NCBI GenBank assembly: GCA_903847905.1
Contig: CAINEZ010000350.1
Span: 1-53,313 of the forward strand
From: an uncultured Bacteroidota bacterium
GTDB taxonomy: Bacteria > Bacteroidota > Bacteroidia > Bacteroidales > CG2-30-32-10
Reading direction: 5' to 3'
DNA length: 53,313 bases
This document shows, one piece after another, positions 8,060 through 40,037 of this stretch. Both the position numbers and the translations under genes were made by a program. Position 1 is the stretch's first letter. Each line of letters starts with the position of its first letter. Below the pieces are notes generated by a model. It was not told the DNA's origin and ran no database searches. It worked only from the letters and a program-made list of their open reading frames with translations.

Positions 8060-8118
8060 GTGGATACCAGAGACCACTATAATAAACGGGGCGGAACTGA
8101 AAAGCCAAATGAGTAGGG
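8060..8118 (+). promoter_or_regulatory. conserved upstream element, copy A (short form)
   Basis: GTGGATACCAGAGACCAC-TATAATAAACG-GGGCGGAACTGAAAAGCCAAATGAGTAGGG. It ends 22 nt before the ATG at 8141. Confidence 0.7.
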
Positions 8119-8140
8119 AAAATAAATAAGAATTATCATT

Positions 8141-8452
8141 ATGGATGAAATTCAAAATCAACAAGATCAGTCTACTCAAACTATAGTTATTAATCAGATT
8201 AAAAAGAAATCAAATGGATTAGGTACAGCAGGTTTTATTCTTGCATTAATAGCAGTTTGTTTAAGCTGGATTCCAATCATACAAATGGTAGGAGGGGTAC
8301 TATGGTTTCTGGGCTTATTATTTTCCTTTATCGGAGTATTTAAAGCCCCCAGAGGTTTAGCTATTGCAGGCTTAATAATTTCCTTGATTGATCTGATTAT
8401 ATTAATTGCAGTATTTGGAGCTCTCTTAGGGATTGGGTCTATATCACATTGA
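8141..8452 (+). CDS. small membrane protein (2-3 TM, DUF4190-like look)
   Basis: A polar N-terminus is followed by GLGTAGFILALIAVCLSWIPII, VLWFLGLLFSFIGVF and GLAIAGLIISLIDLIILIAVFG. Element copy A lies upstream. Confidence 0.6.
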   Translation: MDEIQNQQDQSTQTIVINQIKKKSNGLGTAGFILALIAVCLSWIPIIQMVGGVLWFLGLLFSFIGVFKAPRGLAIAGLIISLIDLIILIAVFGALLGIGSISH

Positions 8453-8470
8453 AGTATCATAAAGAATAAA

Positions 8471-8552
8471 GTGGAGACCAGAAACCACTAAAAAAAACGG
8501 CCTAATCCGATAGGATTATCGGGGGGCGGAACTGAAAAGCCAGATGAGTAGG
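8471..8552 (+). promoter_or_regulatory. conserved upstream element, copy B (long form with inserted hairpin)
   Basis: GTGGAGACCAGAAACCAC-TAAAAAAAACG-[GCCTAATCCGATAGGATTATCG]-GGGGGCGGAACTGAAAAGCCAGATGAGTAGGA. The inserted hairpin is TAATCC/GGATTA. Confidence 0.7.
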
Positions 8553-8567
8553 AAAAATATAAAGAAT

Positions 8568-8963
8568 ATGGACAATAATAAATTTAATAATTTCTATTCA
8601 AAGAAATCGGTAAGTGAATTATTAGGACAATTGCGTTCAAATAGAATGACTGGGGCTACAATGGATAAGGAATGGTATGAAGGTTTAATAGCACATCTTC
8701 GTGAAAGAAACTTATCATTTCAAGAAAGGAATATGTTTGAATATATTATTTCTACAGATCCGGAAACTCTTATGACCGAAAGTGAACCCCGAATAGTTGA
8801 AGAAAATATTAATAATAATAAAATGGCTCTAATAGATGAGCATGAAAAGTGGTACCATAATTGGGCTGCTATATTTTTTACAATTACTGCTGCAGTTACT
8901 ATTGGAGTGGTAGTTGGTATTATAATTATAGGAACATTACTTAGTAAAAAATTAGGATTTTAA
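8568..8963 (+). CDS. tail-anchored membrane protein, unknown function
   Basis: The ORF track starts at 8544, but that ATG is the invariant ATG inside the conserved element. The next in-frame ATG is 8568 (MDNNKFNNFY...). There is a single C-terminal TM (AAIFFTITAAVTIGVVVGIIIIGTLL). Confidence 0.55.
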   Translation: MDNNKFNNFYSKKSVSELLGQLRSNRMTGATMDKEWYEGLIAHLRERNLSFQERNMFEYIISTDPETLMTESEPRIVEENINNNKMALIDEHEKWYHNWAAIFFTITAAVTIGVVVGIIIIGTLLSKKLGF

Positions 8964-9056
8964 TTGAAACCTGTCTATAATAAAGTTCCTCATATTTGGT
9001 GGTTGGCACCGCCTTCATGGAAATATGAAATGAGATAATAATTGAAAATAAACAAA

Positions 9057-9551
9057 ATGGAAATAATAAATGTTTTATTAATGGCAGGGGGAGGTTCAGG
9101 AGGTAGTAGCATATGGTCACAATTTGTCGTTGGAATATTATTTGTTTTAATTTTTGGCTTTTTCTTTATTAGAAATCGGAAAAAAAACAAAAACAATCCT
9201 AAGATTAAGCGTGAAGGAATACCTCCTCAAAAGAAATTGACAATAGGTATTATCATATTTGTGGTTGGTATTGTTTCAATAATAATTGCAGCTATATTTC
9301 CATCTGACGGTTCAGCACAAAAAGAAGAAGAACGCTATTTTTTATATATTCCAGGTTTTATAATCTTAATAGTTGGTGCAATTAATATAGCTGTTAATAT
9401 TGGCCGTATTACCAAACAAAATAAAGTAATTCCTGAAATAAAAGACAATACTGACCAATTTGACAAGCTTGAAAAATTAGCAAAATTAAAAGATCAAGGT
9501 GTAATTACTGAAGAGGAATTTATTGAACAAAAAAGAAAAATATTAAATTAA
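9057..9551 (+). CDS. membrane protein with C-terminal SHOCT-like domain
   Basis: The track start at 9042 is TTG; the first ATG is 9057 (MEIINVLLMAGGG). It has 3 TM helices. The C-terminus DQFDKLEKLAKLKDQGVITEEEFIEQKRKIL matches the SHOCT pattern. Confidence 0.6.
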   Translation: MEIINVLLMAGGGSGGSSIWSQFVVGILFVLIFGFFFIRNRKKNKNNPKIKREGIPPQKKLTIGIIIFVVGIVSIIIAAIFPSDGSAQKEEERYFLYIPGFIILIVGAINIAVNIGRITKQNKVIPEIKDNTDQFDKLEKLAKLKDQGVITEEEFIEQKRKILN

Positions 9552-9559
9552 AAATAAAA

Positions 9560-9616
9560 GTGGAAACCAGAAACCACTATAAAAAACGGGGTTTGAATGA
9601 AAAGACAAACGACTAC
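9560..9616 (+). promoter_or_regulatory. conserved upstream element, copy C (short form, divergent 3' block)
   Basis: GTGGAAACCAGAAACCAC-TATAAAAAACG-GGGTTTGAATGAAAAGACAAACGACTAC. It ends 23 nt before the ATG at 9640. Confidence 0.55.
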
Positions 9617-9639
9617 ATTAAAAATTAAACCAAAACAAA

Positions 9640-9972: not shown

Positions 9973-10068
9973 CAGCTATGTTAGTTTACAACTGGTTGAT
10001 ATTAGAATGAAGAAGTGTTGAATTTTGGAATACCAAAGATGGAATAGAATAACAATTCATAAAAAAAC

Positions 10069-10128
10069 GTGGAGACCAGAGACCACTGAAAAAAACGGGG
10101 CGGAACTGAAAAGCCAGATGAGTAGGGG
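10069..10128 (+). promoter_or_regulatory. conserved upstream element, copy D (short form)
   Basis: GTGGAGACCAGAGACCAC-TGAAAAAAACG-GGGCGGAACTGAAAAGCCAGATGAGTAGGGG. It ends 24 nt before the ATG at 10153. Confidence 0.7.
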
Positions 10129-10152
10129 TAATTTAAATAATGTGTACAGAAA

Positions 10153-11487
10153 ATGATGAAGCCTAAATTTTGTAATAAATTTATTTTGGGTATTCTATTT
10201 TTGCTTTCATTAAATTCTTATGGTCAGAAAGCACTATTAGAAAAAGATGGTATAATTTATTGTGCCAAAGTATATGGGTATAATATTGGAACAAATGACT
10301 TTATTATTGAATGGTTATCAAATTTTGATGAAAAATTTGAAACTTATAAAAATAATGAATTTGAATTAAACGCAAAAAGAAATGAAGCCTTGCAAGAAAT
10401 AAATGCATTATCTAATGAATTACAATTTACAGATATTTATACACAGAAAATGGATGCAGAATTTGGGCAGTATGATTTTAATACTAAAAATTTCGAATTT
10501 AAACCTTTACAATTTGCTGATGAAAAAAAGCAAATTAATACTTCATCTTATTTTTATGTGCATACAAATATTATAAGTGCTGATCATAATAGAGCCGAAG
10601 TTTACGCATTGAATTTTAAAGATTTTGATGGGATTCCTATGGAAACTAATGATGCAAACTTATTTATAAATAATAGAACTAAACAGGGATATAACTCTTC
10701 TTATGTCAATAGAAAAGTATATCTAAAAATTTATTTTTCGATATTACCTGAAAAAATGCAAGATAATTATGGTTGGGGTGGATTAAAAGATATTGGACTA
10801 TATAGTTATGTTTATAAGATTGAAGTATGGGGCGATGAATGTATGTCAGGAAATAAAATAGCAGTTCTTAATGCTAAACAACAACCTCCAACATACCTTT
10901 TAGCTACAGGAGAGGAATTTAATAAAAATTATGATTTAGGTAATACTCAAGAAAAATTGCCTTTGGAGCAAGGATGGATAAAAATTGTTGATCAAACTTT
11001 ATATAATAATAACAGTTCAAATTGTAATAAAAAAAATCATTTTGAAATACATCTTTCAATGGAGAAAGACTATGGTGATTTATATAAAATAAAATTTAAG
11101 TTTCGTACAAATGCTTGTTTAATTTTTTCACCAGGATTTTTTTATACAATTACTGATTTTAAAGAGAATAAATATCCATTATTAGTAACTGATGTCACTG
11201 ATAATATAGTAAATGATTATAAAATTGTATCTGTAAGAATTAATAAAGAAACTCTAAAAAGTCTCGGTGACGGTGGTTTAGCAGATATCAAATTTCAATT
11301 TAACCCAACTTCACAATATCAAGGGTCTTCTAATTATACAAAATATTTTACCAATAAAAAATGCACATCATCTATTTATTTGTATGTTAATTGGTCTTCA
11401 CTAAAAAAGGAAGCTCCTGAATATTGGTTGGATGAAAATGCAAATGATGATTTTAAAAAAATGATAAAAACAATTTTAAACCAATAA
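10153..11487 (+). CDS. secreted protein; N-terminal domain paralogous to 40056..41555
   Basis: Signal peptide ILGILFLLSLNSYGQ. The segment NRKVYLKIYFSILPEK...LYSYVYKIEVWGDE aligns by eye with NRKIYLKFTYSILNKQ...DIYVYSIDVLENE of the 40056 gene. Confidence 0.7.
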   Translation: MMKPKFCNKFILGILFLLSLNSYGQKALLEKDGIIYCAKVYGYNIGTNDFIIEWLSNFDEKFETYKNNEFELNAKRNEALQEINALSNELQFTDIYTQKMDAEFGQYDFNTKNFEFKPLQFADEKKQINTSSYFYVHTNIISADHNRAEVYALNFKDFDGIPMETNDANLFINNRTKQGYNSSYVNRKVYLKIYFSILPEKMQDNYGWGGLKDIGLYSYVYKIEVWGDECMSGNKIAVLNAKQQPPTYLLATGEEFNKNYDLGNTQEKLPLEQGWIKIVDQTLYNNNSSNCNKKNHFEIHLSMEKDYGDLYKIKFKFRTNACLIFSPGFFYTITDFKENKYPLLVTDVTDNIVNDYKIVSVRINKETLKSLGDGGLADIKFQFNPTSQYQGSSNYTKYFTNKKCTSSIYLYVNWSSLKKEAPEYWLDENANDDFKKMIKTILNQ

Positions 11488-11490
11488 AAT

Positions 11491-13122
11491 ATGAAAACAA
11501 AAATTTTAATTATTTTTACATTTATATGTTTGATTATAAGTTCTTGTGGAAATAAAGGTCATGAACTCAAATTAATACCTTATAAGGCTGGTGATCTTTG
11601 GGGTTATTTGGATAAAGATGGTAAAATTGTAATAAATCCACAATTTAATCAGGCTAATGTATTTGTTAATGGATTAGCCTTAGTACAATCTCCCGATAAT
11701 AAATATGGTTATATCGGTGAAGATGGCAAGTATATAATCAATCCAACCTATAAATATGCAACATCTTTTTCGGAAGGTTTCGCATGTGTAGTAATTGAAA
11801 ATGGCAAACCTCAATTTATCAATGAAAAAGGAGAAGTTAAATTTACAGTAGAAGGAAGCGAATATTGCGGTGTATTTAATGATGGATTTGCTCTGGTAAA
11901 AACTGGTGATTTGTGGGGTTATTGTGATAAAACAGGCAATATAAAAATCTCACCTCAATTTGATTATGCATTTCCTTTTTCAGAAGGTTTAGCTGCTGTT
12001 GCAAAAACAAATAAAGAAAAAAACGAAACTTTATGGGGATTTATTAATGATAAAGGAGTGATAATAATTCCATGTCAATTTCAACGAGTAAATTCATTTT
12101 CTGAAGGATTATCATTAGTGAGCGATGGAAAAAAATATGGATATATCGATAAGAGTGGTAAATATATTATAAACTCACAATTTGATAATGCAGGTGATTT
12201 TAAAAATGGTATGGCAATAATTTATCAAGGATCGTTATTTGGTTTTATAAATAAGGCAGGGAAAATAGTTATTAATCCACAATTTAAAAATGCTTTTGCC
12301 TTTTCAAATAACAATGATATTACATTGGTTTTTAGTTCTGATAATAAAGCAGGCTATATTGATAAAGAAGGTAAGTACGTTATCAACCCACAATTTGAAA
12401 ATGGAACTAATTTTTATAATAATATTGCATTTGTTTGTTCAGCAAATAAGTGGGGTATAATTGATAAAAAAGGCAAATATATAGTAAATCCTCAATTTGA
12501 AAACATTAATGTTGATTTTGAAAGGATCAAAACATCAATTATCGAATCAGATTATTTTGATATTCCTACTGTAGTAGACAAGTTTCTTACAGGTACTGAT
12601 ACGAAAAATTTCAGAGGTTTGAATGAAAAGACAATTTACTCAATTATTGATAATGCAATTCCAGCTGGAACGCCTCATTTGACAATTTATGGTAATAAAG
12701 CAACAACCTCAACACAAGAAGATTTGGATAAAATGGTTTTCATTAGTCAAAAATATTATTATTTTACTCAAGATATTTCTTCTCAAAAACCAGTATATAA
12801 AACAGAAAAACAATATAATGCTTATAGGGGCGGATATTATAATGCACAGATTTTTGACCATTATGATAACATTTATAATACAAATTCAGTTTTAATGGGT
12901 GCAGACTTTATACTTGGCTTTTCAGGAAAAGCGTATAATAAGAAGGTCGATATTATGACTGCGATCGGAGATGCAATAGCTCTTAAAATTGGTGTAAAAG
13001 ATAAAATTGATAATACAGGTAATAATGTGGAAATTAATAATAGTGATCTAGACATTCATATCGATAAAAATAAAGGTCAAGTTGGCTTTTATTTTATGCA
13101 ATATAATGCGGGCGGTGATTAA
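11491..13122 (+). CDS. lipoprotein with KWG/WG-containing beta-propeller-type repeats
   Basis: Lipobox LIISSCG. There are more than 8 repeats of the type DLWGYLDKDGKIVINPQF / NKYGYIGEDGKYIINPTY. Confidence 0.8.
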   Translation: MKTKILIIFTFICLIISSCGNKGHELKLIPYKAGDLWGYLDKDGKIVINPQFNQANVFVNGLALVQSPDNKYGYIGEDGKYIINPTYKYATSFSEGFACVVIENGKPQFINEKGEVKFTVEGSEYCGVFNDGFALVKTGDLWGYCDKTGNIKISPQFDYAFPFSEGLAAVAKTNKEKNETLWGFINDKGVIIIPCQFQRVNSFSEGLSLVSDGKKYGYIDKSGKYIINSQFDNAGDFKNGMAIIYQGSLFGFINKAGKIVINPQFKNAFAFSNNNDITLVFSSDNKAGYIDKEGKYVINPQFENGTNFYNNIAFVCSANKWGIIDKKGKYIVNPQFENINVDFERIKTSIIESDYFDIPTVVDKFLTGTDTKNFRGLNEKTIYSIIDNAIPAGTPHLTIYGNKATTSTQEDLDKMVFISQKYYYFTQDISSQKPVYKTEKQYNAYRGGYYNAQIFDHYDNIYNTNSVLMGADFILGFSGKAYNKKVDIMTAIGDAIALKIGVKDKIDNTGNNVEINNSDLDIHIDKNKGQVGFYFMQYNAGGD

Positions 13123-13197
13123 TATTATCCAACCCTTGGTTCAGGTTCCACCTCCATCGAAATATTAAATGAGTAAATGATTCTAAACAAAATAAAA

Positions 13198-13252
13198 ATG
13201 GAGACCAGCAACCATTAAAAAACGGGGCGGAACCGAAAAGCCAGATGAGTAG
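13198..13252 (+). promoter_or_regulatory. conserved upstream element, copy E (short form, compensated stem)
   Basis: ATGGAGACCAGCAACCAT-TAAAAAACG-GGGCGGAACCGAAAAGCCAGATGAGTAGG. Both stem sides are changed relative to the other copies (GTGG/CCAC becomes ATGG/CCAT). Confidence 0.7.
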
Positions 13253-13283
13253 GAAATAAGCTGTTTAACTTAAAACTAAGAAC

Positions 13284-14717
13284 ATGAAAAAGACAAACAT
13301 TTTTTTGCTGTTTTTAACCGCAACATTTTTGATTGCACTACTTTCAGGTTGTGCAGGAAAAAAAAACAATCTTAATACAGGATTAATACCTGTAAAAAGT
13401 AATGATAAATGGGGATATGTAGATAAAGAGGGAAAATACATCATCAATCCCCAATTTTCATACGCCGATTACTTTATCAATGGAATCGCATTGGTAAAAA
13501 GCAATGATAATAAGTATGGATTTATTAATGAAAAAGGTGAATATTTGATTAATCCACAATATAAAAATGCTATGCCATTTTCTGAAAATATGGCTTGTGT
13601 TATTTCAGAAGGTTGTGTTCCGAAATACATCAACAAAAAAGGTGATATTTTATTTGAAGTGCCAACAGCAGAGCAGGCGGGCAATTTTCATAACGGTTTT
13701 GCCAGAATAAAAAATAAAGACAACAAATGGGGATTTGTTGATAATACTGGGAATATTAAAATCAATTGTCAATACGATGGTGTAAATGATTTTAACGAAG
13801 GGATGGCTGCCGTAATGAATATAAATAAGAAAGACACTACTAAGACTTTTGAAGAATGGGGTTATATAAATGAAAAAGGTGAAATGATTATTAATTTCCA
13901 ATTTAAGGATGCGTCACCATTTATTGAATCTTTAGCCAGAATTACATTAGATTATAAACAATATGGATATATTGATACTAAAGGAAAAATGATAATAAAT
14001 CCTCAATTTGATGCAACTACGATATTTACCGATGGACTTGCTCCATTTAGATCGGGGAAATTATGGGGCTTTATTGATAAAACAGGTAAAATAAAGATCA
14101 ATCCTCAATTTGACGAAGTTGGTTTAATAAATAATAAACTAATTCCTGTAAGATCTGGCGAAAAATGGGGATATATTGATAAAGAAGGCAAGATTGTTAT
14201 TAATCCGCAATTTGACGATGCACTTTCATTTTTAGGCGATATTGCCATGGTGAAATCTTCCGACAAATGGGGTTTCATTGATAAATCAGGTAAATATATA
14301 GTAAATCCACAGTTTGAAGATATAAACAGAGATATATTAACATACCTAATTATCGGTTCTGATTGGGGAAATATTGTAGTGAGTGATAAAATACCACCTG
14401 TCGAAGAAATTGCTGAGAAATTTCTTACCTTTTTGAATAGAAAAGATTATGATGAAGCTAGAAAACTTGGTACCGAAAATACCAAACAAATGCTTGATAT
14501 GATGAAGAGTTTTGCTGGTGCTGCTGCAAAACCTACCGTTACAAAAGATGTAAAGATTGAGAATCTGAAATGTGATACAAATAATGATAAGGCTAGATGT
14601 ACATATACAGCCGAAGGGAAATTGGAATCAATTGATTTAGTAAAACAAGACAATAAATGGTTGGTTGATATGAAAAAGGAAGGTGGAGGGAATAATGCTT
14701 CATCACCAGGTGAATGA
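13284..14717 (+). CDS. lipoprotein with KWG/WG-containing repeats (paralogue of 11491..13122)
   Basis: Lipobox LLSGCAG. Repeats of the type DKWGYVDKEGKYIINPQF. The C-terminal roughly 110 aa are distinct. Confidence 0.8.
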   Translation: MKKTNIFLLFLTATFLIALLSGCAGKKNNLNTGLIPVKSNDKWGYVDKEGKYIINPQFSYADYFINGIALVKSNDNKYGFINEKGEYLINPQYKNAMPFSENMACVISEGCVPKYINKKGDILFEVPTAEQAGNFHNGFARIKNKDNKWGFVDNTGNIKINCQYDGVNDFNEGMAAVMNINKKDTTKTFEEWGYINEKGEMIINFQFKDASPFIESLARITLDYKQYGYIDTKGKMIINPQFDATTIFTDGLAPFRSGKLWGFIDKTGKIKINPQFDEVGLINNKLIPVRSGEKWGYIDKEGKIVINPQFDDALSFLGDIAMVKSSDKWGFIDKSGKYIVNPQFEDINRDILTYLIIGSDWGNIVVSDKIPPVEEIAEKFLTFLNRKDYDEARKLGTENTKQMLDMMKSFAGAAAKPTVTKDVKIENLKCDTNNDKARCTYTAEGKLESIDLVKQDNKWLVDMKKEGGGNNASSPGE

Positions 14718-14825: not shown

Positions 14826-14878
14826 ATGGAGACTAGGTACATTTAAAAAATTGGAATACGGCCGAAAACCAAGTATTG
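14826..14878 (+). promoter_or_regulatory. conserved upstream element, copy F (degenerate)
   Basis: ATGGAGACTAGGTACAT-TTAAAAAATTGGAATACGGCCGAAAACCAAGTATTG. The order of blocks is recognisable but many positions are changed. It ends 34 nt before the ATG at 14913. Confidence 0.4.
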
Positions 14879-14912
14879 ATTTTTATTTAGTATAAATTAA
14901 TAAGAGATAATC

Positions 14913-21035: not shown

Positions 21036-22010
21036 ATGAAGACATGCACTAAATGCCTAATTTCTTATTCAAATAATAAAAAGTTCTGCAAGAAATGTGG
21101 GGCGATTTTAATTCCAGAAAATAATATTATTGAGCAAGAGGAGAATAATAATACAAATAACTTTATTAAAGAAAGCGGTTTAATTCCTGATGTTGAAACT
21201 TCTAAAGACCAAGTTTCACAAAAAGGGAATAAAAGTATCTTAAAGAAAATAATTATTATCGGCACCTCTTTTATTGCTGTATTTATTGTTGTAATTATCC
21301 TAGTCTTTTATTTCAGACAAAAAAGTGCCTGGAATGAAGCTGAACAAATTAATTCGATCAATTCATTTCAATCATACATAAATGATTATCCTACTGGAAG
21401 ATATGTTGATGAGGCTAAATTGAAAATAAAGCTAATCAATGAGTCTATTATAATACAAAGACAGCAAGCTATTCAAGACTCTATTGCTCATGTTCAAAAA
21501 GCAATTGCTGATTCTATTGCAGCAGTTGGGAAACAATCAAATATTACAATAAATCAAAAACCTTCCACATTGGCAATAAAAGGCATTAAAGTAAATATTC
21601 GTTCTTTTCCATCTTTAAGGTCAAATGTTATTTTTCAATTAAATACAGGTGATGTTTGTTATATAGTCGAAAAGGGTAATCTTGAAAATATAAATGGTAC
21701 ACCGGATTATTGGTTTAAAGTAAATTTCAACGGTAAAATAGGCTGGGTATTTGGGACGTTTACTAGTCTATCAACAATTAGTACCTCTTCAAATTCTTCT
21801 ACCTATAATGGAAATAAAACAGGAAAAGCTATTTATGATAGAGTTTATTTTTATTCATCCCCAAATTTAAACTCTCGATTGAATACATATATTGTTAGTG
21901 GCCAAAATGTTGAAATTATTTCGAATAATGGAGATTTTTGGAAAGTATCTTTTACATTTAATAATAAAACAACTAATGGTTTTATTAGGAAAATGGATCT
22001 CAGTTTGTAA
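21036..22010 (+). CDS. N-terminal zinc ribbon / TM / SH3b-like domain protein
   Basis: MKTCTKCLISYSNNKKFCKKCGAIL. TM, then SAWNEAEQINSINSFQSYINDYPTGRYVDEA. The SH3b-like segment is VNIRSFPSLRSNVIFQLNTGDVCYIVEKG...YWFKVNFNGKIGWVFGTF, with a second similar unit. Confidence 0.7.
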   Translation: MKTCTKCLISYSNNKKFCKKCGAILIPENNIIEQEENNNTNNFIKESGLIPDVETSKDQVSQKGNKSILKKIIIIGTSFIAVFIVVIILVFYFRQKSAWNEAEQINSINSFQSYINDYPTGRYVDEAKLKIKLINESIIIQRQQAIQDSIAHVQKAIADSIAAVGKQSNITINQKPSTLAIKGIKVNIRSFPSLRSNVIFQLNTGDVCYIVEKGNLENINGTPDYWFKVNFNGKIGWVFGTFTSLSTISTSSNSSTYNGNKTGKAIYDRVYFYSSPNLNSRLNTYIVSGQNVEIISNNGDFWKVSFTFNNKTTNGFIRKMDLSL

Positions 22011-22087
22011 ATATTATTAAATTGTAAATCAAATTAGATTAGTTTATTATTAATGCAAGAATTTATGTTAATCTTATTTAATACAAT

Positions 22088-25623: not shown

Positions 25624-25724
25624 GAAAAAAATAACTTAAAAAAAAGTATTTAATATTTTATAAATGAGTACATTTGGAGTATAAAATTTATTAAAAAATA
25701 GAATTTTAACTAAAAGCTTATTAT

Positions 25725-27002: not shown

Positions 27003-27075
27003 CACAGATAATATTATTGTATGAAATTTTTTGTTGAGTTGAAAATTAATAGTTTATATTCTAACAGACAATATT

Positions 27076-27795
27076 ATGAAACCAAATAAACTTTTCACTA
27101 TTTTGCTTCTACTATTTGGAGAAGCATTGATTATTATAGGTTTTTTATATTTTGCGAAAAACCTTGAACTCAAAATATTAATACTAAATATAGCTGTAAC
27201 ATCGATTTTATATTTTGTCTGTTTTGTCTACTTTTCAGATAAAATCATTCCAATTGTTGATATAAAAGAGAAATCTCATAGTTCAGTTGGTTCCCTCGGA
27301 ATAAAATGGGTCTTTGTTACCATATATGCAATACTGGCCATTGGGGCTATGCTAATATTAAACACAGTTAAACCACTTGGTTTTACAGGGCAAATTATTA
27401 TTCAAGGAGTAATTTTATTCATTCTATTGCTCGGGATATATTTTTCTATTTACGCTTCAAATAAAGTCCATGAAGTTTATACTGAAGAGAAGCAAAATCG
27501 CAGTCGTATTGGTGATATGAAAAAAGCAACAAACGATGTAAAGTTGAGGATAGACCAAATGAAAGGTATGCCAGCAGATTTAATTGTGAGAATTACTACA
27601 TTATTGGATAATATGCGATTCATTTCTCCTGGAGATAACAATGATGCAATTGTTTTAGAAACAGATTATTTAAAAGAAATCAAAACAGTTCATGATTGTT
27701 TGTTTGAAATTCCCATTAATTATGAAAAGATTACGGAGAATATTTCCAATTGTGAGCGAGTCTATAATGAAAGAAAAAAAGTGTACTCAAATTAA
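27076..27795 (+). CDS. 4-TM membrane protein with helical cytoplasmic C-terminal domain
   Basis: Four hydrophobic helices in the first 125 aa or so, then a charged helical domain. The next ATG lies 23 nt downstream. Confidence 0.65.
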   Translation: MKPNKLFTILLLLFGEALIIIGFLYFAKNLELKILILNIAVTSILYFVCFVYFSDKIIPIVDIKEKSHSSVGSLGIKWVFVTIYAILAIGAMLILNTVKPLGFTGQIIIQGVILFILLLGIYFSIYASNKVHEVYTEEKQNRSRIGDMKKATNDVKLRIDQMKGMPADLIVRITTLLDNMRFISPGDNNDAIVLETDYLKEIKTVHDCLFEIPINYEKITENISNCERVYNERKKVYSN

Positions 27796-27818
27796 TAATA
27801 ATCTTAAACTTCAAAAGC

Positions 27819-30230
27819 ATGAAAGGTAAAATTTTTGCGGAATCAAGTAATATCTACCAGGATCAGGCGAAGATATTATTTAACTATTATCAGCAAATGG
27901 CTGAAAAGATAGTTCTAGAAGAAGAAAACACGGAAAAAGAGATCGCTAAACTGGAAGAAGAAAAAACAGTCTTAGAAAAAGATTTATCAAATGCCAAACT
28001 TTGGAAATGGGTGCTTTGCATTTTTATCATCCCTTTTATTTATTTTTTATTAAGAGAAAAAAATCTAATTACCCAAATAAGTGCACTTGAAGAAAGGATA
28101 GCTGAATATCAAAAACTGCACAAAGAAATATTCAGAGATTACAAAGTCAGTAAATTAGGGATAGCCTATGTGCCTGTTGCTAGTCAATTTAAATATGAAA
28201 ATAAGAGCTTTATTGTTGACCATACAGGAATGGTTGGAGAATCAGAGGTAAAGCTACAATTATCAAAACAAAATGATTTATTGATCGAAAAAATTGAAGA
28301 TTTGGAAAAATTGTCTTCAGAGGCCCCATTGGTTGAAAGTTCAAATGAAACTGAGGAAATTGATACTGAGAAATATTCACTTTCTATGCAGCAATTAAAT
28401 CAGCATGATTATTTTGGAAATCTGGAACGCTCACTAAGGACTATTTCATACTGTATGGATGATTTGGATGTTACATCAGTTTCATTACCTCTGGTTGCTA
28501 ACAATAGCCCTTACCTAAAATTTATCAATGAATATTCAACAACAGAGATCCCAGAGGGAGCACCTGTTTTTGAAGTTTTCGATACTAAAAAATATAATGA
28601 TGATATTGCAAAATTTCAGGAACTTAATAAATTAAAAGATTCACTTTCAAAAAATACTGCACAATTTGAAGATGTTTTAAAGGGTCTTATGGTTACTATG
28701 GCTAATTCTGTTCAGGCAATTTCGGCACTTAAAGTTGCTTCAACAGATAAGATTATATTTGAATCAAATAAAGTATTATTCAAAATTTTAAAATCCCCTT
28801 ATAATCATTACTCCCCAGTATTAGAAGCCGGAGAAATTGAAAGAATCAGAAATGAAAACTTTAATTATGGAGATTCGGTGCAGGATTATGTTCCTTTTCA
28901 ATTAAAAGATAGTTCGCGTGTAAAATACAATTTGTTATCCGATGCATGGGTTGCAGAAGATGGAAGTTCAACGAACTTCCCTTTTGGAATTCATCAGATA
29001 CACGAAGAAATTGTCGCTCCTATGGTACAGAATTTAATGAATGAGACGCGTATTGAAAGATTGAAAATATACAACCATATTAAAGACCAAAAGATAAGCT
29101 ATCTGAATAAATGGCACCAGGATACAGAAGATTTTTACGGTAGAAATCGGGCCGAAAGTGCAGATTTAATCAATTTAATGCGAGCAAGTTTGAGGGATTA
29201 CATAGCCGCCTATAATACATTTGCCGCACTTAAAAATACTGAAAATAGCATGACGGCATCAAAAGTATCAAGGGATTCTGATATCGAAGGAGAAAATGAT
29301 AATTCAGTTGGTTTATTAGATTCAACTGTTGTAACAGTAAATGATAATTCCGCTGAAGTATTGGCTGCTTTTGACATGCAATCAAAAGAATTTCAAAATG
29401 TTCAACTTGATTTTGAGGATTATATGGAGCGCCTCAAAGAGGATATTGATCAAAAAGCAGAAAAATTTGAGCATATTGATTATTATGATGCCCTCCTTCG
29501 AGATGGAAATTCAAAAGATACTGCTGTTGCAACAAATGAAATGCAAAAATTAGATGAAAGGAGAAAACCACTTATTTCGGTTAATCCTCTTTTTGCAAAA
29601 AATTCAGAAATGCCACCGATACCAAGCGTTGAAGATATTACATATGAGCACATCTCACTCAACTTGCCGGTAATAGCCAGAAATGCCCTTAAGGATCTTG
29701 ATGATGATTTAAGTACTGAATCAATAAATGACGATAATAATGGAGGACCAAAGATTGGAAGTCCCATTGAAAATAATGACGTAAAAGATGATGTTGAATC
29801 TGGCACATCCATCGAAAAATACTTTTGTACTGATTGTGGAGCAGAGTTAACATCGGATACTACTATTTGCACGGATTGTGGGGCCAAGATTGATACTGTT
29901 AATGAGGATAAAATGAATGAAGCCGAAAAAGTTCCCAACACAATAAATGAAGAACAGAATTTGGACGAAACTAAACAGTTTTTCTGCCCTGAATGCGGTT
30001 CAAAAGTCACATCAGATTCAAAACATTGTCCGGAGTGTGGAATTGAATTAAAGGTTGAAGAATTTGAGGAAAATGATATTAATCAGGAAAATCAAAGTGA
30101 AGAAGAAGCAGGACAATTTTTTTGCCCTGAATGTGGTATCAAGGTGACAACAGAAGTAACAATTTGTCCGGGTTGCGGCACTGAACTTAGTTTTGATGAA
30201 GACGATGAAGATAAAAAAATTAATAATTAA
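27819..30230 (+). CDS. 803-aa coiled-coil protein with one hydrophobic segment and three C-terminal zinc ribbons
   Basis: N-terminal coiled coil (EKEIAKLEEEKTVLEKDL), then the hydrophobic segment LWKWVLCIFIIPFIYFLL. The C-terminus carries YFCTDCGAELTSDTTICTDCGAKI, FFCPECGSKVTSDSKHCPECGIEL and FFCPECGIKVTTEVTICPGCGTEL, separated by acidic linkers. No P-loop is seen. Confidence 0.75.
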   Translation: MKGKIFAESSNIYQDQAKILFNYYQQMAEKIVLEEENTEKEIAKLEEEKTVLEKDLSNAKLWKWVLCIFIIPFIYFLLREKNLITQISALEERIAEYQKLHKEIFRDYKVSKLGIAYVPVASQFKYENKSFIVDHTGMVGESEVKLQLSKQNDLLIEKIEDLEKLSSEAPLVESSNETEEIDTEKYSLSMQQLNQHDYFGNLERSLRTISYCMDDLDVTSVSLPLVANNSPYLKFINEYSTTEIPEGAPVFEVFDTKKYNDDIAKFQELNKLKDSLSKNTAQFEDVLKGLMVTMANSVQAISALKVASTDKIIFESNKVLFKILKSPYNHYSPVLEAGEIERIRNENFNYGDSVQDYVPFQLKDSSRVKYNLLSDAWVAEDGSSTNFPFGIHQIHEEIVAPMVQNLMNETRIERLKIYNHIKDQKISYLNKWHQDTEDFYGRNRAESADLINLMRASLRDYIAAYNTFAALKNTENSMTASKVSRDSDIEGENDNSVGLLDSTVVTVNDNSAEVLAAFDMQSKEFQNVQLDFEDYMERLKEDIDQKAEKFEHIDYYDALLRDGNSKDTAVATNEMQKLDERRKPLISVNPLFAKNSEMPPIPSVEDITYEHISLNLPVIARNALKDLDDDLSTESINDDNNGGPKIGSPIENNDVKDDVESGTSIEKYFCTDCGAELTSDTTICTDCGAKIDTVNEDKMNEAEKVPNTINEEQNLDETKQFFCPECGSKVTSDSKHCPECGIELKVEEFEENDINQENQSEEEAGQFFCPECGIKVTTEVTICPGCGTELSFDEDDEDKKINN

Positions 30231-36682: not shown

Positions 36683-36701
36683 AATATTAATTTATTAATT
36701 A

Positions 36702-36789
36702 CCCTACTCTTAAGGCTTTTCAGTTCCGCCCCCAAGTTTTTTACCTGACCGGGACAGGCTCGTTTATTTAGTGGGTTCTGGTCTCCACT
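36702..36789 (-). promoter_or_regulatory. conserved upstream element, copy G (long form)
   Basis: The minus strand reads AGTGGAGACCAGAACCCACT-AAATAAACG-[AGCCTGTCCCGGTCAGGTAAAAAACTT]-GGGGGCGGAACTGAAAAGCCTTAAGAGTAGGG. It ends 20 nt before the ATG at 36682. Confidence 0.7.
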
Positions 36790-36805
36790 TTTATTTATTA
36801 TTTCT

Positions 36806-36829
36806 CAAAAAAATAGACCGCTACGCGGT
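36806..36829 (-). terminator. intrinsic terminator
   Basis: On the minus strand: ACCGC-GTA-GCGGT followed by CTATTTTTTT. It sits between the stop of 36860..37453 and element copy G. Confidence 0.5.
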
Positions 36830-36859: not shown

Positions 36860-37453
36860 TCAATAATCGCTAACACAACGCACAGAGAACCCAGAAGGCT
36901 TACTGGTAGTGTTTCTGTATACAACGCTGTCTTTACCGTCCATGCCCATGTGCCAAGCATTATCTATATCATACTCTGTAGAACTCCACCAGTTACCGTT
37001 GTATCCAATGTCGTAAAATGTTCCATAGTGGGCCCGTAAACCTCCCGGAAGGGCTGTAAAGCCACTGGTGTTAGTGCCATTGCCATTTTCATTCCATCCG
37101 TTCTTAGATTTCATTTTTTCACCGGCAACTAAAACTCCACCAAAATTATTAATCAGCGTTGTCCATTCTGCATCGCTTGGTAAATGCCAACCTGTGGGGC
37201 ATACATTTTTAGCTGTTCCCCAACTATAAAGATAACCATAGTTTTTCACATTGTTTTGATCATCATTATATGCCCAACAGCCACTATCTGCTTTAAAAGC
37301 AAGGTTCTCCGCCATCCATGTTTGGGTGCCAATTTTTACGGTTTTGTAAGTTTTACCATCTCTTGAATCGGTAAAAGAACCAATTTGTTGAGCAAAGGAA
37401 CTTATTGCAAAAATAAACATAGCAATTGTCAATGATAAATTTTTGTTTTTCAT
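36860..37453 (-). CDS. Fibrobacter succinogenes major paralogous domain (Fib_succ_major) lipoprotein/secreted protein
   Basis: FTDSRDGKTYKTVKIGTQTWMAENL...YLYSWGTAKNVCPTGWHLPSDAEWTTL...GFTALPGG...WWSST. The track start at 37492 is a TTG inside element copy H. The ATG at 37453 gives MKNKNLSLTIAMFIFAISSFAQQ. Confidence 0.8.
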   Translation of the reverse strand: MKNKNLSLTIAMFIFAISSFAQQIGSFTDSRDGKTYKTVKIGTQTWMAENLAFKADSGCWAYNDDQNNVKNYGYLYSWGTAKNVCPTGWHLPSDAEWTTLINNFGGVLVAGEKMKSKNGWNENGNGTNTSGFTALPGGLRAHYGTFYDIGYNGNWWSSTEYDIDNAWHMGMDGKDSVVYRNTTSKPSGFSVRCVSDY

Positions 37454-37470: not shown

Positions 37471-37553
37471 CCATAATCATCTGGTTTTTCAATTCCGCCC
37501 CCGATAAAATTACCTGATCAGGACAGGCTCGTTTTTTATAGTGGGTTCTGAAT
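37471..37553 (-). promoter_or_regulatory. conserved upstream element, copy H (long form, 5' hairpin half lost)
   Basis: The minus strand reads ATTCAGAACCCACT-ATAAAAAACG-[AGCCTGTCCTGATCAGGTAATTTTATC]-GGGGGCGGAATTGAAAAACCAGATGATTATGG. It ends 17 nt before the ATG at 37453. Confidence 0.6.
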
Positions 37554-38023: not shown

Positions 38024-38044
38024 AATTGAACAATTTTAGTTTTT

Positions 38045-38132
38045 CCTACTCTTTAGGCTTTTCAGTTACGCCCCCGATTTTTTTGTCTGTTCGGGCCAGG
38101 CTCGTTTTTTTTAGTGGATTCTGAACTCCACT
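38045..38132 (-). promoter_or_regulatory. conserved upstream element, copy I (long form)
   Basis: The minus strand reads AGTGGAGTTCAGAATCCACT-AAAAAAAACG-[AGCCTGGCCCGAACAGACAAAAAAATC]-GGGGGCGTAACTGAAAAGCCTAAAGAGTAGGA. The stem is extended to GTGGA/TCCAC. Confidence 0.7.
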
Positions 38133-38832
38133 TCAGGTTATTTTCTAATTCTAATTTCAAGATTCTAATTTCGAATACTATATTTTTACTTTTTGAAATA
38201 AAAAGTCAAAGTACAATTAATTTTATTTGATAAACAAATTTTTTCTTTGAAATTTAACGAATATTTTTCAATTATTTTTTTTTACACGCTGGGTGCCTTA
38301 TACATTGTGCATTTCAGAATATTTGCGAACTGTCTGCGTACTGGGATAGGCATCTTATATGATTGAGTTGTCATTTCCGTTGATATTATGGCAATATAGA
38401 AATTTGCAAAATGTAGAATCTGCATTTATTTTTCATTTATTTTTTATACCCGTTATAAATTTCTTTTCGGGTTGGGCACATACAGATAAATCTACCGCCA
38501 AACGGCATCTTGTTTGTGCAAAATTTATTGATACTACATTGTATAAAATGAATTTCGTTTTCAATACATTGTTCAACTTTACACAAAGTGTGGTTTTCGT
38601 TTTTCAGACAGCTAAATTCTTTTTCTAAACAAAGAGTTTGGTTAATAGTTTTTTCGTTGATCTAAAATTTTATTGAAAGAATTTTCCACCTTCCAATGTT
38701 CCCTTTGTTGCAGTATACAAAATCTTAAATCTCTTTTCTTTTCAGGTATGCCAATCATCTTTCGCCACAAGTAAAAACGCCATGCTATTCTGCAATTATT
38801 ATTCAACCAAATAAAACTTACCTCCCATTGAA

Positions 38833-39150
38833 GTCATAATTCATTCCAACGCAGTCAAAATTCAGTTCAGTTTTGTCAATGTTGTTTTCTGGTGTGTAAA
38901 TGTCCTTTTCGGCTCTGTCACCGGGCTTTCTGTCAGTGTCAATCATGTTTTCTGCTCTGTCAACTTACTTTCTGTCAGTGTTAACAGTGTTTTCTGCCTT
39001 GTACATGCATTATTCTGTTATATAAATGGTGTTTCCCATTATGTCAGATGTTTTTTCCGGCATGTCAGTGAGGTATTCTACTCCGTATATGCATTATTCT
39101 TGTATGTAAAAGGTGTTTCCGGCTCTGCCAATGTCGTTATCGGGTATTTA
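38833..39150. repeat. degenerate tandem array, about 15 units of about 21 bp (GTCA-N6-8-TTTTCYG-N4-5)
   Basis: Read by eye: gtcaatgttgttttctggtgt / gtaaatgtccttttcggctct / gtcaccgggctttctgtca / gtgtcaatcatgttttctgctct / gtcaacttactttctgtca / gtgttaacagtgttttctgcctt / ... No ORF of 60 aa or more on either strand. Confidence 0.7.
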
Positions 39151-39323
39151 TCATGGGTCTCAGCCGTTCTTTTCAATTGTCCGGGTCATACATCTATCTT
39201 TTAGGATATTCTTCTTCAGATTGATTATCGTTTTCTGCAAGCCGGTATTAACTTCGAACAATTGCGCTTAGGGTGTTCGGGTATTGGTAATGAAGAGGTA
39301 TTAATTACCAATATGTCTTTATA

Positions 39324-39851
39324 TTGTTTTTTTTTAAAGAAACAAACTCACGGGAAGCGGAAATAATATTGCACGCCACGCAGGTAGCCGACCGTGATGA
39401 AAAGTATCATAATCTGATCGTTTATATGAAAACGATGCTGGATACGGCAGCGAAACCTTTCAGGAAAAAAGATCCTGCTTTTTTTAAGTTATACAAAAAA
39501 TGTCGTAAGCTGCATTTGCAAGGGCATAGAAAAAGAAAACCGGGCGACAACGGCGCTCCCGGAGAGTTTGATAAAATTATTCCGATGCTAAAAATTGTGC
39601 CTATGGGATTTCAGATTGAAGCAGGAAAAATTTATTTGTTCAGCAACCTGGGAAACCCTGACCTGAAATATTGGACACAGGCAACCCCTGATGCTCCGAC
39701 CACGATACCGGCAGGTTTCAAACTTATAACAGGAGGTGATGAAGCCACACAGAGTTCGGTGGATTTGGGATTTCCGGATAAGACATATTTGTTCGTGGCC
39801 AATGAAAGCAATACGGAGGATGGGGAGATAGGGATTGATGAAGTGGTTTAG
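39324..39851 (+). CDS. hypothetical protein in a locally GC-richer patch (start uncertain; alternative ATG at 39426)
   Basis: A 175-aa ORF starting at TTG, with an internal ATG giving MKTMLDTAAKPFRKKDP. A strong terminator follows. No motif is recognised, and it could be a gene remnant. Confidence 0.4.
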   Translation: MFFFKETNSREAEIILHATQVADRDEKYHNLIVYMKTMLDTAAKPFRKKDPAFFKLYKKCRKLHLQGHRKRKPGDNGAPGEFDKIIPMLKIVPMGFQIEAGKIYLFSNLGNPDLKYWTQATPDAPTTIPAGFKLITGGDEATQSSVDLGFPDKTYLFVANESNTEDGEIGIDEVV

Positions 39852-39890
39852 GAAGGTGTTTAGACTGTAGGCTTTTAGACTATAGGTAAA

Positions 39891-39927
39891 AAAACTCTCT
39901 TGGTTGTGGCTGGGGGAGTTTTTTTTT
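39891..39927 (+). terminator. intrinsic terminator
   Basis: AAAACTCTC ... GGGAGTTTT stem (one G-T wobble) followed by a T-run of 9. Confidence 0.7.
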
Positions 39928-39979
39928 GATGGTTTTTTTATTTTGAATTGAAAATTAGTTATTTTTGAGGTACAATAAA

Positions 39980-40037
39980 GTGGAGACCAGAAACCACTTA
40001 AAAAAACGGGGCGGAACTGAAAAGCCAGATGAGTAGG
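39980..40037 (+). promoter_or_regulatory. conserved upstream element, copy J (short form)
   Basis: GTGGAGACCAGAAACCAC-TTAAAAAAACG-GGGCGGAACTGAAAAGCCAGATGAGTAGG. It ends 18 nt before the ATG at 40056. Confidence 0.7.

Follow-up and report, generated by a model that had tools for sequence, protein, structure and literature searches.

The closest described system is the DUF805 RNA motif, which originates from a comparative-genomics survey (Weinberg et al. 2017, PMC5737381). Rfam holds it as RF03081, in clan CL00115 together with DUF805b (RF02914). The RF03081 consensus joins a hairpin (GUGG-AGaCCAGAaA-CCAC), an A-rich linker, an ACGGGGcG..CCGAAAAgCC stem-loop and a GAGUAGG tail, and is found 5' of protein-coding genes in Bacteroidota; RF02914 comprises the 3' core alone, i.e. 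the CCGAAAA stem-loop followed by the GAGUAGG tail. A literature search found no paper on the function of either motif.

Copies of the DUF805 motif in the window

The window, the whole 53,313-nt stretch of Bacteroidota DNA analysed here, carries a repeated element that is this catalogued motif: it shares with RF03081 the sequence, the nested structure and the location 5' of protein-coding genes. Using the Rfam covariance models, eight of the ten window copies match RF03081 or RF02914, five of them (A, B, D, E and J) over the curated threshold, with RF03081 scores of 54-86 bits (gathering score 51.1 bits), and three (C, G and I) slightly under it (gathering score of RF02914, 35.6 bits). Related loci outside the window are also matched by the two models. 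The element is thus a previously described candidate cis-regulatory RNA, and the initial annotation, which recognised no named RNA motif, was wrong on this point: an Rfam match had been set beforehand as the observation that would contradict novelty, and the search gives DUF805/DUF805b. The copies are as follows:

Copy A: 8055..8124, + strand; RF03081, 75.3 bits; hairpin 1 8060-8077, core pseudoknot 8090-8117; ATG 8141 of a 103-aa membrane protein.
Copy B: 8466..8558, + strand; RF03081, 54.3 bits with a 28-nt insertion; hairpin 1 8471-8488, crossing-helix insert about 8499-8524, core 8525-8552; likely start 8568.
Copy C: 9555..9623, + strand; RF03081, 49.5 bits, under the gathering score; hairpin 1 intact, core degenerate (GGGGTTTGAATGAAAAGACAAACGACTACA); ATG 9640.
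Copy D: 10064..10133, + strand; RF03081, 77.8 bits; core 10099-10126; ATG 10153 of a 444-aa DUF4852 protein (Pfam).
Copy E: 13193..13259, + strand; RF03081, 82.7 bits; hairpin 1 ATGG...CCAT, core 13226-13253 with C13-G31; ATG 13284 of a WG-repeat lipoprotein (Pfam).
Copy F: 14826..14885, + strand; doubtful copy, no Rfam match at E<=1; ATG 14913.
Copy G: 36697..36793, - strand; RF03081, 46.5 bits; hairpin 1 36770-36789, crossing-helix insert, core 36703-36730; ATG 36682.
Copy H: 37472..37553, - strand; decayed copy, no Rfam match at E<=1; ATG 37453.
Copy I: 38043..38132, - strand; RF02914, 33.0 bits (38043-38074); hairpin 1 GTGGA...TCCAC, crossing-helix insert, core 38045-38072 (GGCGtAAC); ATG 38023.
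Copy J: 39975..40043, + strand; RF03081, 86.3 bits; core 40010-40037; likely start codon 40056.

All ten sites lie where they had been reported, each oriented to its adjacent downstream gene. Copy F is doubtful: it holds only fragments (ATGGAGAC, CCGAAAA and AGTA) at the wrong spacing, no pseudoknot can form, and it is either a relic or a match by chance. Copy H is decayed, hairpin 1 having lost its 5' half, and its core (37472-37499) carries 3 or more substitutions, with A19, T28 and a changed tail (3-5 mismatches); even so, it is clearly homologous to copy G. Six occurrences of the 25-nt 3' block, at up to 3 mismatches, were counted in the window, whereas 100 dinucleotide shuffles give an expectation of 0.00. 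The starts given by the ORF lister for the genes after copies B (8544) and J (40029) are ATGs within the element; the true starts are likely 8568 and 40056.

The window copies also depart from the catalogued families. None of the ten downstream genes encodes a DUF805 domain (Pfam). RF02914, the best model for copy I, also matches relatives without hairpin 1, but its consensus differs by one additional loop base and in the connector (6-nt vs 4-nt), and several relatives with an exact core score under its threshold.

An RNA element with a pseudoknotted core

About 330 relatives across Bacteroidota formed the comparison set, and a scan of genome contigs gave at least 120 loci; both collection scans held parts of the pattern fixed, which biases class frequencies, and many instances share descent. 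Nearly all matches listed belong to Bacteroidales, Flavobacteriales, Chitinophagales, Cytophagales or Sphingobacteriales.

The outer pair of hairpin 1 is paired in 69 of 77 sequences (GC 44, AU 11, GU 9, UA 5), against 53.9 ± 2.3 and at most 64 in 2000 shuffles, and G.U (9) is tolerated where A.C (2) is rare. Covariation of hairpin 1 among relatives and its G.U tolerance indicate an RNA of the sense strand. The loop AGACCAGAAA, said to be conserved, is so within the window but differs in about one third of relatives. The 3' stem GGC/GCC is swapped to CGG/CCG in four relatives (L001, L120, L042 and L150). As for the "optional hairpin" of the initial annotation, an inserted domain does exist in some copies, but it is better seen as two crossing helices. 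Thermodynamic folding of single window copies was not distinctive (z-scores -2.1 to +0.8).

The 28-nt core is an H-type pseudoknot because position 13 covaries with 31 and position 12 with 32. Positions 13/31 are C-G 106, U-A 61, U.G 26 and C.A 10 times (Fisher p = 1e-20), and in loci with a GC content of at least 0.40 G31 goes with C13 in 55/55 cases and A31 with U13 in 12/12; a control column showed no association (p = 0.44). The mutual information of 13/31 (0.322 bits) makes each the top partner of the other, the runner-up standing at 0.146. Positions 12/32 are C-G nearly always, their covariation coming from two sequences, one G-C (L179) and one G.U (L042). When the structure pairs were scored, 97.2% of cells were paired and the covariation score was 0.177, whereas shuffles gave 0.104 ± 0.009 and 0/500 of them came up to 0.177; shifting the 3' partners by 1-3 columns left merely 1-49% paired. 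Length changes are confined to two loops (L1 4-6 nt, L3 4 or 6 nt) and never fall in the helix strands. The structure line of RF03081 leaves the tail unpaired and the insert unaligned; in the present comparison the tail is the pairing partner of the loop, making the pseudoknot, and the insert forms the two crossing helices. The pseudoknot was also absent from the initial annotation.

The rest of the second helix recalls a known RNA module, AGUA/GAA being the canonical sarcin-ricin sequence (PMC1865062). As in sarcin-ricin/bulged-G (loop E) motifs, tail A27G28U29A30 stands opposite G14A15A16, flanked by the covarying 13-31 pair; CCGAA/AGUAGG fits the module and may take the bulged-G geometry. 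The likeness is one of sequence pattern: all seven bases are invariant, leaving no isosteric variation with which to test that geometry.

Promoter position, spacing and downstream genes

For the sigma-A -7 box, the consensus TAnnTTTG and its placement follow PMC9723704. The 160 nt upstream of the element contain 55 sense occurrences of this motif but 14 antisense ones, a perfect box lies 5' of the element in 40 of 203 instances (about 20%, against 9.0 ± 2.7 in shuffles), and for 27 of 31 cases transcription is predicted to start -1 to +38 nt before hairpin 1. In the window, copy J has a perfect box (TAttTTTG) ending 12 nt before hairpin 1, which places the predicted transcription start 8 nt before it. 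Upstream of copy G no recognisable -7 box was found, and a terminator-like hairpin (36817-36829) lies about 25 nt before its hairpin 1. Boxes 5' of the entire element, together with covariation in hairpin 1, the 3' stem and the pseudoknot, uphold the first of two readings offered initially, that of a structured 5' leader RNA marking a set of genes.

The second reading took the 3' block as a promoter for an alternative sigma factor, of ECF type or another (GGAAC as -35, GAGTA as -10) with the hairpin as operator. GGAAC does resemble ECF -35 elements; envelope proteins are over-represented among the targets, and at copy G there is scant room for another promoter after the terminator-like hairpin. 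We nevertheless consider this reading very improbable: (i), GATAC, GTTAC, GAAAC, GGAGC or AAAGC replace GGAAC in otherwise perfect, correctly placed copies. (ii), it is the putative spacer (CCGAAAAGCC) that is invariant, and of constant length. (iii), spacer base 13 covaries in Watson-Crick fashion with "-10" base 31, and 12 with 32, and this is strand-asymmetric (U.G 26 vs C.A 10). (iv), hairpin 1 shows RNA-type covariation, sigma-A boxes lie upstream, and there is no CGT-type -10 such as SM6, an ECF motif of F. psychrophilum, has. Thus, while ECF promoters (sigma-E type, GGAAC...N16...TC) share with the element a pentamer and an association with envelope genes, the AAC of the -35 is unconserved here and the element is predicted to be transcribed from upstream sigma-A boxes. 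A sigma-54 promoter was also rejected: the GG/GC spacing and the flanking bases do not fit.

From core to ATG the commonest distance is 19-21 nt, and about 90% of 123 instances fall within 15-30 nt, the spacer being A-rich and unconserved. In intact window copies the end of GAGTAGG lies 15-30 nt from the ATG. The 20-nt rule is not absolute, since a copy in a genome of the beta-proteobacterium Sphaerotilus stands 42 nt from an ATG, and this ATG has a Shine-Dalgarno-like sequence of its own. Orientation relative to genes is non-random, as all of the roughly 330 instances point the same way at a near-constant distance from the start codon. This weighs heavily against a mobile repeat of the MITE/REP kind, or a recombination (cassette) site, that regulates nothing, as the many copies in a 32-kb stretch, some decayed (C, F, H), and the element-ORF-element-ORF runs might suggest. 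Moreover, the element precedes orthologous single-copy genes across orders (AHSA1, DUF805 and SCO4226-like families), none was found in the viral contigs scanned, and neither terminal inverted repeats nor target duplications were noticed on reading the copies; a mobile origin seems to us scarcely credible.

In the products of all ten window genes, N-terminal signal, lipoprotein or transmembrane features can be made out by eye, but the products are not all small as had been stated, four having 444-520 aa. Among relatives DUF805 is the commonest downstream partner, yet accounts for 12 of 125; the others include lipoproteins, T9SS cargo, rhodopsins, AHSA1/SRPBCC and SCO4226-like proteins and many unknowns. 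The heterogeneity of these genes is such that a physiological signal cannot be inferred. It also bears on the possibility that the core is a small riboswitch aptamer, a pseudoknot binding a small molecule or ion and altering translation or mRNA stability. The compact H-type pseudoknot architecture recalls other very small riboswitch classes, near-invariance of a 28-nt core throughout a phylum is a usual trait of ligand- or ribosome-binding RNAs, and some partners are channels or transporters (MIP, MscS-type, FNT and DUF805 membrane proteins). However, the gene set is very mixed and without a common pathway, no conserved alternative pairing or terminator is seen from core to AUG, and there are very few Watson-Crick pairs (3 bp + 2 bp), so that we regard a riboswitch as unlikely.

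Alternatively, the element could mainly set mRNA stability or processing, with a protective 5' hairpin, the core as an RNase or processing determinant, and cistrons matured separately. The position of hairpin 1, within 0-38 nt of the predicted transcript 5' end, would suit this, as would copies in consecutive gaps of co-directional runs (in the window and at L013, L064, L042 and L001). But the rigid spacing to the start codon and the DUF805b-type copies that lack hairpin 1 would be left unexplained, and we think this quite unlikely. No terminator-like site was detected in the short gaps between co-directional genes that hold copies B and C, a situation that suits a translational element acting per cistron.

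A proposed role at translation initiation

We thus propose, with a probability of about 0.65, that the element is a DUF805/DUF805b cis-acting leader RNA whose core acts at translation initiation. A sigma-A promoter upstream would start the transcript, with the 4-6 bp hairpin 1 at or near its 5' end, followed by the A-rich linker and, in some copies, by the inserted domain of two crossing helices. In the invariant core, the 3-bp stem G5G6C7/G19C20C21 closes a loop whose C12C13-G14A15A16 pairs with tail A27G28U29A30-G31G32. The pseudoknot so formed is compact and of H-type, and where its second helix is not Watson-Crick paired it has the sarcin-ricin (bulged-G) sequence AGUA/GAA. Between core and AUG lies a fixed distance of about 20 nt, A-rich in sequence, and at about -20 the core would sit at or close to the 5' boundary of the mRNA covered by an initiating 30S subunit, in a phylum that does without Shine-Dalgarno pairing. 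Once folded, it would act on initiation of the adjacent ORF by docking a partner, which would be the ribosome or else an RNA-binding protein that is conserved. The comparisons establish to which family the element belongs, that it is a structured RNA of the sense strand, its pseudoknot pairs, its spacing and its gene set, while the bulged-G geometry, the action on translation and the partner are inferred. If this is true, the element would define a post-transcriptional regulon that spans the phylum and consists mostly of small envelope and stress-type proteins.

Pseudoknots serving as translational operators are known from the T4 gene 32 and E. coli rpsO leaders. There too a small pseudoknot lies 5' of an unstructured A/U-rich stretch leading to the start codon, and its placement relative to the ribosome-binding region matters. 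However, each of those leaders serves autoregulation of a single gene, whose own protein product binds it, whereas the DUF805 element stands ahead of dozens of unrelated genes across a phylum.

Identity and distribution of the element

The element belongs to a family listed in Rfam since a 2017 survey. The initial annotation had taken it for no named RNA motif, which was wrong: an Rfam search leads to DUF805 (RF03081) and its sister family DUF805b (RF02914), and a match to a described family, which that annotation had itself named as speaking against its proposal, was thus found. Its ten sites were all confirmed in sequence, each facing the adjacent downstream gene.

Copies of the element in the window
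8060, + strand, copy A
8471, + strand, copy B
9560, + strand, copy C
10069, + strand, copy D
13198, + strand, copy E
14826, + strand, copy F
36702-36789, - strand, copy G
37471-37553, - strand, copy H
38045-38132, - strand, copy I
39980, + strand, copy J

In a covariance-model scan, five copies (54.3-86.3 bits) scored at or above the gathering score (51.1) of RF03081 "DUF805 RNA" (cis-regulatory, clan CL00115), copies C (49.5 bits) and G (46.5 bits) came narrowly below it at a permissive threshold, and copy I matched DUF805b best (33.0 bits against a threshold of 35.6, permissive scan); copy H had no Rfam match in the permissive window scan. The 25-nt 3' block occurs six times with up to 3 mismatches, where shuffles predict 0.00. 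Hairpin 1 (a 4-bp stem with an A/G-rich 10-nt loop) was found in eight of the ten copies. The 3' stem-loop GGC-(GGAA)CCGAAAA-GCC with its GAGUAGG tail shows at most one mismatch in A, B, D, E, G and J and two in I; C, H and F carry degenerate versions. Judged from these sequences, copy H is clearly a decayed homologue of G that has lost the 5' half of hairpin 1 and carries at least three core substitutions, and copy F, of which only wrongly spaced fragments are left, is regarded as a relic or a chance match. All window copies lie in sense orientation 5' of a protein-coding gene.

The window (about 30% GC, no tRNA genes) encodes Bacteroidota-type proteins, including GldM-like, Fib_succ_major, WG and MORN repeat proteins, an SBF transporter and an MBOAT protein. 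The genes behind the element had been described as encoding small membrane, lipoprotein or secreted proteins: by eye, all ten do have a hydrophobic signal, lipoprotein or transmembrane N-terminus; "small" holds only in part, since four of the ten products are 444-520 aa long. None of the ten carries the DUF805 protein domain (PF05656), and the genes at 9057-9551 and 11491-13122, within the runs, have no copy.

Genes around the copies
83-7167, + strand, ORF run directly adjoining the first DUF805 copy on its 5' side, co-directional
83-3990, + strand, four ORFs without a Pfam match
3998-6391, + strand, 797-aa protein with a Tubulin_2 (PF13809) domain
6409-7167, + strand, trypsin-like peptidase
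21036-30230, + strand, envelope-type gene cluster with no element before any of its genes
10153-11487 and 40056-41555, paralogous pair, DUF4852 (with MORN_2)
11491-13122 and 13284-14717, paralogous pair, WG_beta_rep
36860-37453 and 41595-42464, paralogous pair, Fib_succ_major

The paralogous pairs, lying behind or beside the element, suggest that genes and leaders were duplicated together. The products of the 21036-30230 cluster are an SH3_3 protein, a protein combining YARHG with a zinc ribbon, an M23 peptidase, a four-domain GldM-like protein (23908-25623), an SPFH/Band-7 protein carrying a double zinc ribbon and an 803-aa protein carrying several zinc ribbons. The stretches 38024-39323 and 47762-49744 lack ORFs of at least 90 aa. 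In the second, a (TG)n/(TA)n microsatellite (about 49531-49593) produced a spurious mir-297 match; beyond it, GC rises abruptly to 0.43 at 50-52 kb, inside a 1166-aa minus-strand ORF. On the opposite (+) strand, two sites score as intrinsic-terminator-like, each a hairpin followed by a T-run: hairpin 1 together with the A-run upstream of it (36770-36789), and part of an insert together with the A-rich linker (38085-38104). These sites could stop antisense transcription or be incidental.

A scan of one genome per species (pattern GGAACNGAAAAGCCNNNNGAGTAGG) yielded at least 120 related loci. The matches listed come from Bacteroidales, Flavobacteriales, Chitinophagales, Cytophagales and Sphingobacteriales and are almost all from Bacteroidota, the few MAGs labelled as other phyla among them being taken to be mis-binned; copies near-identical to those of the window occur in a Bacteroidales MAG (L084, L069). 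Cultivable carriers include Chryseobacterium daecheongense (L017), Chitinophaga rupis (L022), Flagellimonas flava (L025) and Flavobacterium bernardetii (L006). Rfam splits these relatives by the 5' hairpin, those with it falling into DUF805 and those without into DUF805b (35.6-41.4 bits, threshold 35.6). Viral contigs gave no match for canonical or variant cores, and a phage-borne element was rejected. The proteins encoded downstream are very diverse and mostly 50-250 aa long. DUF805 is the commonest partner (12/125), so that the association is a tendency and not a requirement; next come DUF6567, T9SS-tail proteins, LipL32-like lipoproteins, AHSA1/SRPBCC, rhodopsins and SCO4226-like proteins, and further partners are DUF1842, TM2, PEGA, beta-barrel outer-membrane proteins, aquaporin, FNT, YiaAB and MscS-type channels. 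Runs of 3-5 copies within 2-4 kb, each copy before a short ORF, are found in other Bacteroidota genomes:

Copy runs in related loci
1174-3563 of locus L013
3147-4972 of locus L064
15-2463 of locus L042
2631-3895 of locus L001

Clusters like those of the window are therefore typical, and islands of small genes with their own DUF805 leaders recur. Among the matches listed, the sole clear exception to the Bacteroidota distribution and to the 20-nt spacing described below is Sphaerotilus natans ATCC 13338 (NZ_FTMZ01000004.1, L087:1350-1470), an isolate genome with a complete DUF805 element (hairpin GTGGAATCCGGAAACCAC and an exact core) in a 57-59% GC island of a 73% GC beta-proteobacterial chromosome. 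There the ATG is 42 nt away and has its own Shine-Dalgarno-like AAGGGAG; this copy could reflect horizontal transfer or contamination.

Conserved structure of the leader

Single-sequence folding energies are unremarkable (z -2.1 to +0.8); the evidence for structure is comparative only. For hairpin 1, anchored on its invariant GG/CC core only in 77 relatives, the outer pair is GC in 44, AU in 11, GU in 9 and UA in 5, that is 69/77 paired versus 53.9 +/- 2.3 in shuffles (maximum 64 in 2000). G.U (9) outnumbers A.C (2), an asymmetry that points to the sense strand of an RNA, so that hairpin 1 covaries as RNA, in line with the structured 5' leader with a compensated stem that was one of the two readings initially offered. 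Whole-stem variants in relatives include GTTG/CAAC, GAGA/TCTC, GTGA/TCAC and GCGG/CCGC.

The core is numbered here G5 G6 C7, G8 G9 A10 A11, C12 N13 G14 A15 A16 A17 A18, G19 C20 C21, N22-25, G26 A27 G28 U29 A30 G31 G32. Its 3' stem GGC/GCC is changed to CGG/CCG, with compensation, in four loci (L001, L120, L042, L150), and the tail is shown unpaired in the Rfam structure lines. Pairing of loop and tail was tested by scanning the metagenome collection for non-G31 cores (pattern GGCGGAACNGAAAAGCCN{4,6}GAGTAHG; 91 loci). All variants carry A31, with U13 in 61/71, and the G31 set has C13 in 106/133; the combined counts for pair 13-31 (C-G 106, U-A 61, U.G 26, C.A 10; Fisher p = 1e-20) come from two collection scans that both had fixed pattern parts and from instances many of which are related by descent. 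This association is not an artefact of AT drift, because loci with GC >= 0.40 split perfectly (C13 in 55/55 G31 cores, U13 in 12/12 A31 cores) and N25, a variable position serving as control, gives no such signal (p = 0.44). By mutual information (0.322 bits; next best 0.146), 13 and 31 are each other's top partners. Covariation of pair 12-32 comes from two sequences, as only three cores have a base other than C at 12: G12/U32 (L042) and G12/C32 (L179), both pairable, and U12 in the decayed copy H.

A count over 100 distinct cores finds 97.2% of cells paired, with changes on both sides in each pseudoknot pair, and a covariation score of 0.177 (shuffles 0.104 +/- 0.009) that 0/500 shuffles reached; sliding the 3' partners by 1-3 columns leaves only 1-49% paired. 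Length varies in the connecting loops only (loop L1 is GGAA, GGAAG or longer, loop L3 is 4 or 6 nt), which is what an H-type pseudoknot predicts. Between pair 13-31 and the 3-bp stem, the strands G14A15A16 and A27G28U29A30 are invariant. AGUA/GAA is the canonical sarcin-ricin (bulged-G) sequence (PMC1865062), from which we infer that this segment may adopt the bulged-G geometry. Two further pairings were discarded, that of CGG (positions 2-4) with C12C13G14, where the 3-13 association (mutual information 0.146) reflects subfamily structure and no pairing, and a 4-22 pair that would lengthen the 3' stem, which is unsupported.

What had been called an optional hairpin is indeed an optional structured insert, located between the ACG of the linker and the core, and appears to consist of two crossing helices instead of a single hairpin. 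We compared 14 distinct inserts of differing sequence (window copies B, G, H and I, and L001, L027, L069, L074, L084, L106, L156, L178, L197 and L202), which have this architecture in common in the order a-b-a'-(A-rich)-b', with b' directly abutting the GGC of the core stem. Helix a/a' takes the forms GCCTG/CAGGC, CTTG/CAAG, ACCT/AGGT and GCCTTA/TAAGGC, and helix b/b' the forms CCCGAT/ATCGGG, CCTGAA/TTCAGG, CCTGC/GCAGG, CCCTG/CAGGG and CCCGA/TCGGG. A per-sequence shuffle test of the insert pseudoknot was noisy (p <= 0.015 in 5/14, about 0.06 in two more); support for the crossing helices, in which we have moderate confidence, hence comes from recurrent compensated changes and from differing sequences with one architecture. 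In one locus (L197:4060-4115), an additional 8-bp hairpin (AAACCCGT...ACGGGTTT) lies between hairpin 1 and the insert, which indicates that the linker region tolerates modular additions.

A possible role at the start codon

Every instance among the relatives is on the sense strand, 5' of an ATG. The gap between the GAGTAGG end and this ATG has a mode of 19-21 nt, and about 90% of 123 instances fall within 15-30 nt. A MITE- or REP-like mobile repeat, to which random orientation or position would have pointed according to the initial annotation, is hard to reconcile with this spacing and with the uniform orientation, and we consider it extremely improbable. Two listed ORF starts, at 8544 (copy B) and 40029 (copy J), are ATGs within the element (..AGATGAGTAGG..) in frame with the downstream ORF; the real starts are likely 8568 and 40056. 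Positions N24-N25-G26 read ATG only if N25 is T, in 84/219 cores, so that this is not a conserved start, and an upstream ORF beginning there was rejected. For annotation, the motif-internal ATG is a likely source of misplaced starts, as happened for these two ORFs.

The data show a transcribed, structured leader that stops a constant distance short of the start codons of many unrelated genes across the phylum. Its folded core would most likely act on translation initiation: given the mRNA stretch known to be covered in initiation complexes, a rigid structure ending at about -20 would sit at or near the 5' edge of the region under the initiating 30S subunit. A 28-nt sequence kept invariant across a phylum would be expected of an RNA in contact with a small ligand, the ribosome or some universally conserved protein, and not of a lineage-specific regulator. 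Bacteroidota are without Shine-Dalgarno sequences (PMC9723704). We tentatively propose, with a probability of about 0.3, that the invariant 28-nt pseudoknot with its sarcin-ricin-like module docks on the Shine-Dalgarno-independent ribosome, or on one phylum-wide RNA-binding protein, about 20 nt 5' of the AUG, as a dedicated translation-initiation signal of a phylum-wide post-transcriptional regulon. If true, this docking signal would define a regulon of small envelope and stress proteins throughout the phylum.

A classical riboswitch would also display a conserved structured core, as is present here; we think it unlikely, because the downstream gene set is incoherent and heterogeneous and no terminator, sequestering helix or conserved alternative helix was found between core and AUG. 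A role chiefly in mRNA stability or processing, for its part, would leave the spacing to the AUG unexplained and is an outside possibility. The AGGA of the tail, at least 17 nt from the AUG, was rejected as a Shine-Dalgarno sequence. To our knowledge Bacteroidota lack CsrA, which makes a CsrA-type dual-GGA site unlikely.

A literature search on the DUF805/DUF805b motif, the Rfam accessions and the core sequence found no work on function, the only match to the core sequence being a designed RNA-origami loop. The motif is not discussed in the Weinberg 2017 main text, and the supplementary material of two transcriptome papers, on F. psychrophilum and B. thetaiotaomicron, makes no mention of it. 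The pseudoknot of the core and its AGUA/GAA module, the crossing helices of the insert, the ruler-like AUG spacing and the breadth of the gene set may be new. Together with the case for RNA and the two pseudoknots, such a ruler-like distance, in a phylum whose ribosomes skip Shine-Dalgarno pairing, bears on how some Bacteroidota mRNAs get selected for translation; cheap and specific experiments follow from this, and the finding would gain interest if docking for translation were confirmed.

RNA leader or promoter

The second reading initially offered was an ECF-type promoter, with GGAAC as -35, GAnTA as -10 and the hairpin as operator. GGAAC varies in otherwise perfect, correctly spaced copies (GGCGatACC, GGCGttACC, GGCGaAACC, GGCGGAgCC, GGtaaAgCC), which keep CCGAAAA, the stem, GAGTAGG and a constant "spacer" length. 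The Bacteroidota sigma-A -7 box is TAnnTTTG, spanning -12 to -5 (PMC9723704), and such boxes lie just upstream of the whole element, 55 in sense versus 14 in antisense; the perfect box is found in 40/203 instances versus 9.0 +/- 2.7 in shuffles. The start predicted from the box falls -1 to +38 nt before hairpin 1 in 27/31 cases, and copy J has a perfect TAttTTTG with a predicted start 8 nt 5' of its hairpin. Copy G has no recognisable -7 box, and a terminator-like hairpin ends about 25 nt before its hairpin 1; both count against the leader case, as do the unremarkable single-sequence folding energies. A sigma-70 promoter scan is uninformative for Bacteroidota. A sigma-54 promoter (GG...GC as -24/-12) was rejected, because the two elements would be misspaced by one, the element lacks the TGGCA/TTGC context, and covariation is left unexplained.

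Five independent lines argue strongly for RNA: covariation of hairpin 1, the variable GGAAC, the compensated 3' stem, the upstream -7 boxes and the core pseudoknot. An orphan motif is thereby narrowed to RNA rather than promoter, and two pseudoknots are added to its structure. A promoter for an ECF-type or other alternative sigma factor is very improbable, as the upstream sigma-A boxes and the RNA covariation across the region argue against a transcription start just 3' of the "-10". In an ECF-type promoter, the -35 (G)GAAC and the short -10 are both conserved and the spacer between them is fixed in length and free in sequence, whereas in intact copies of the element the supposed -35 varies and the spacer is invariant.
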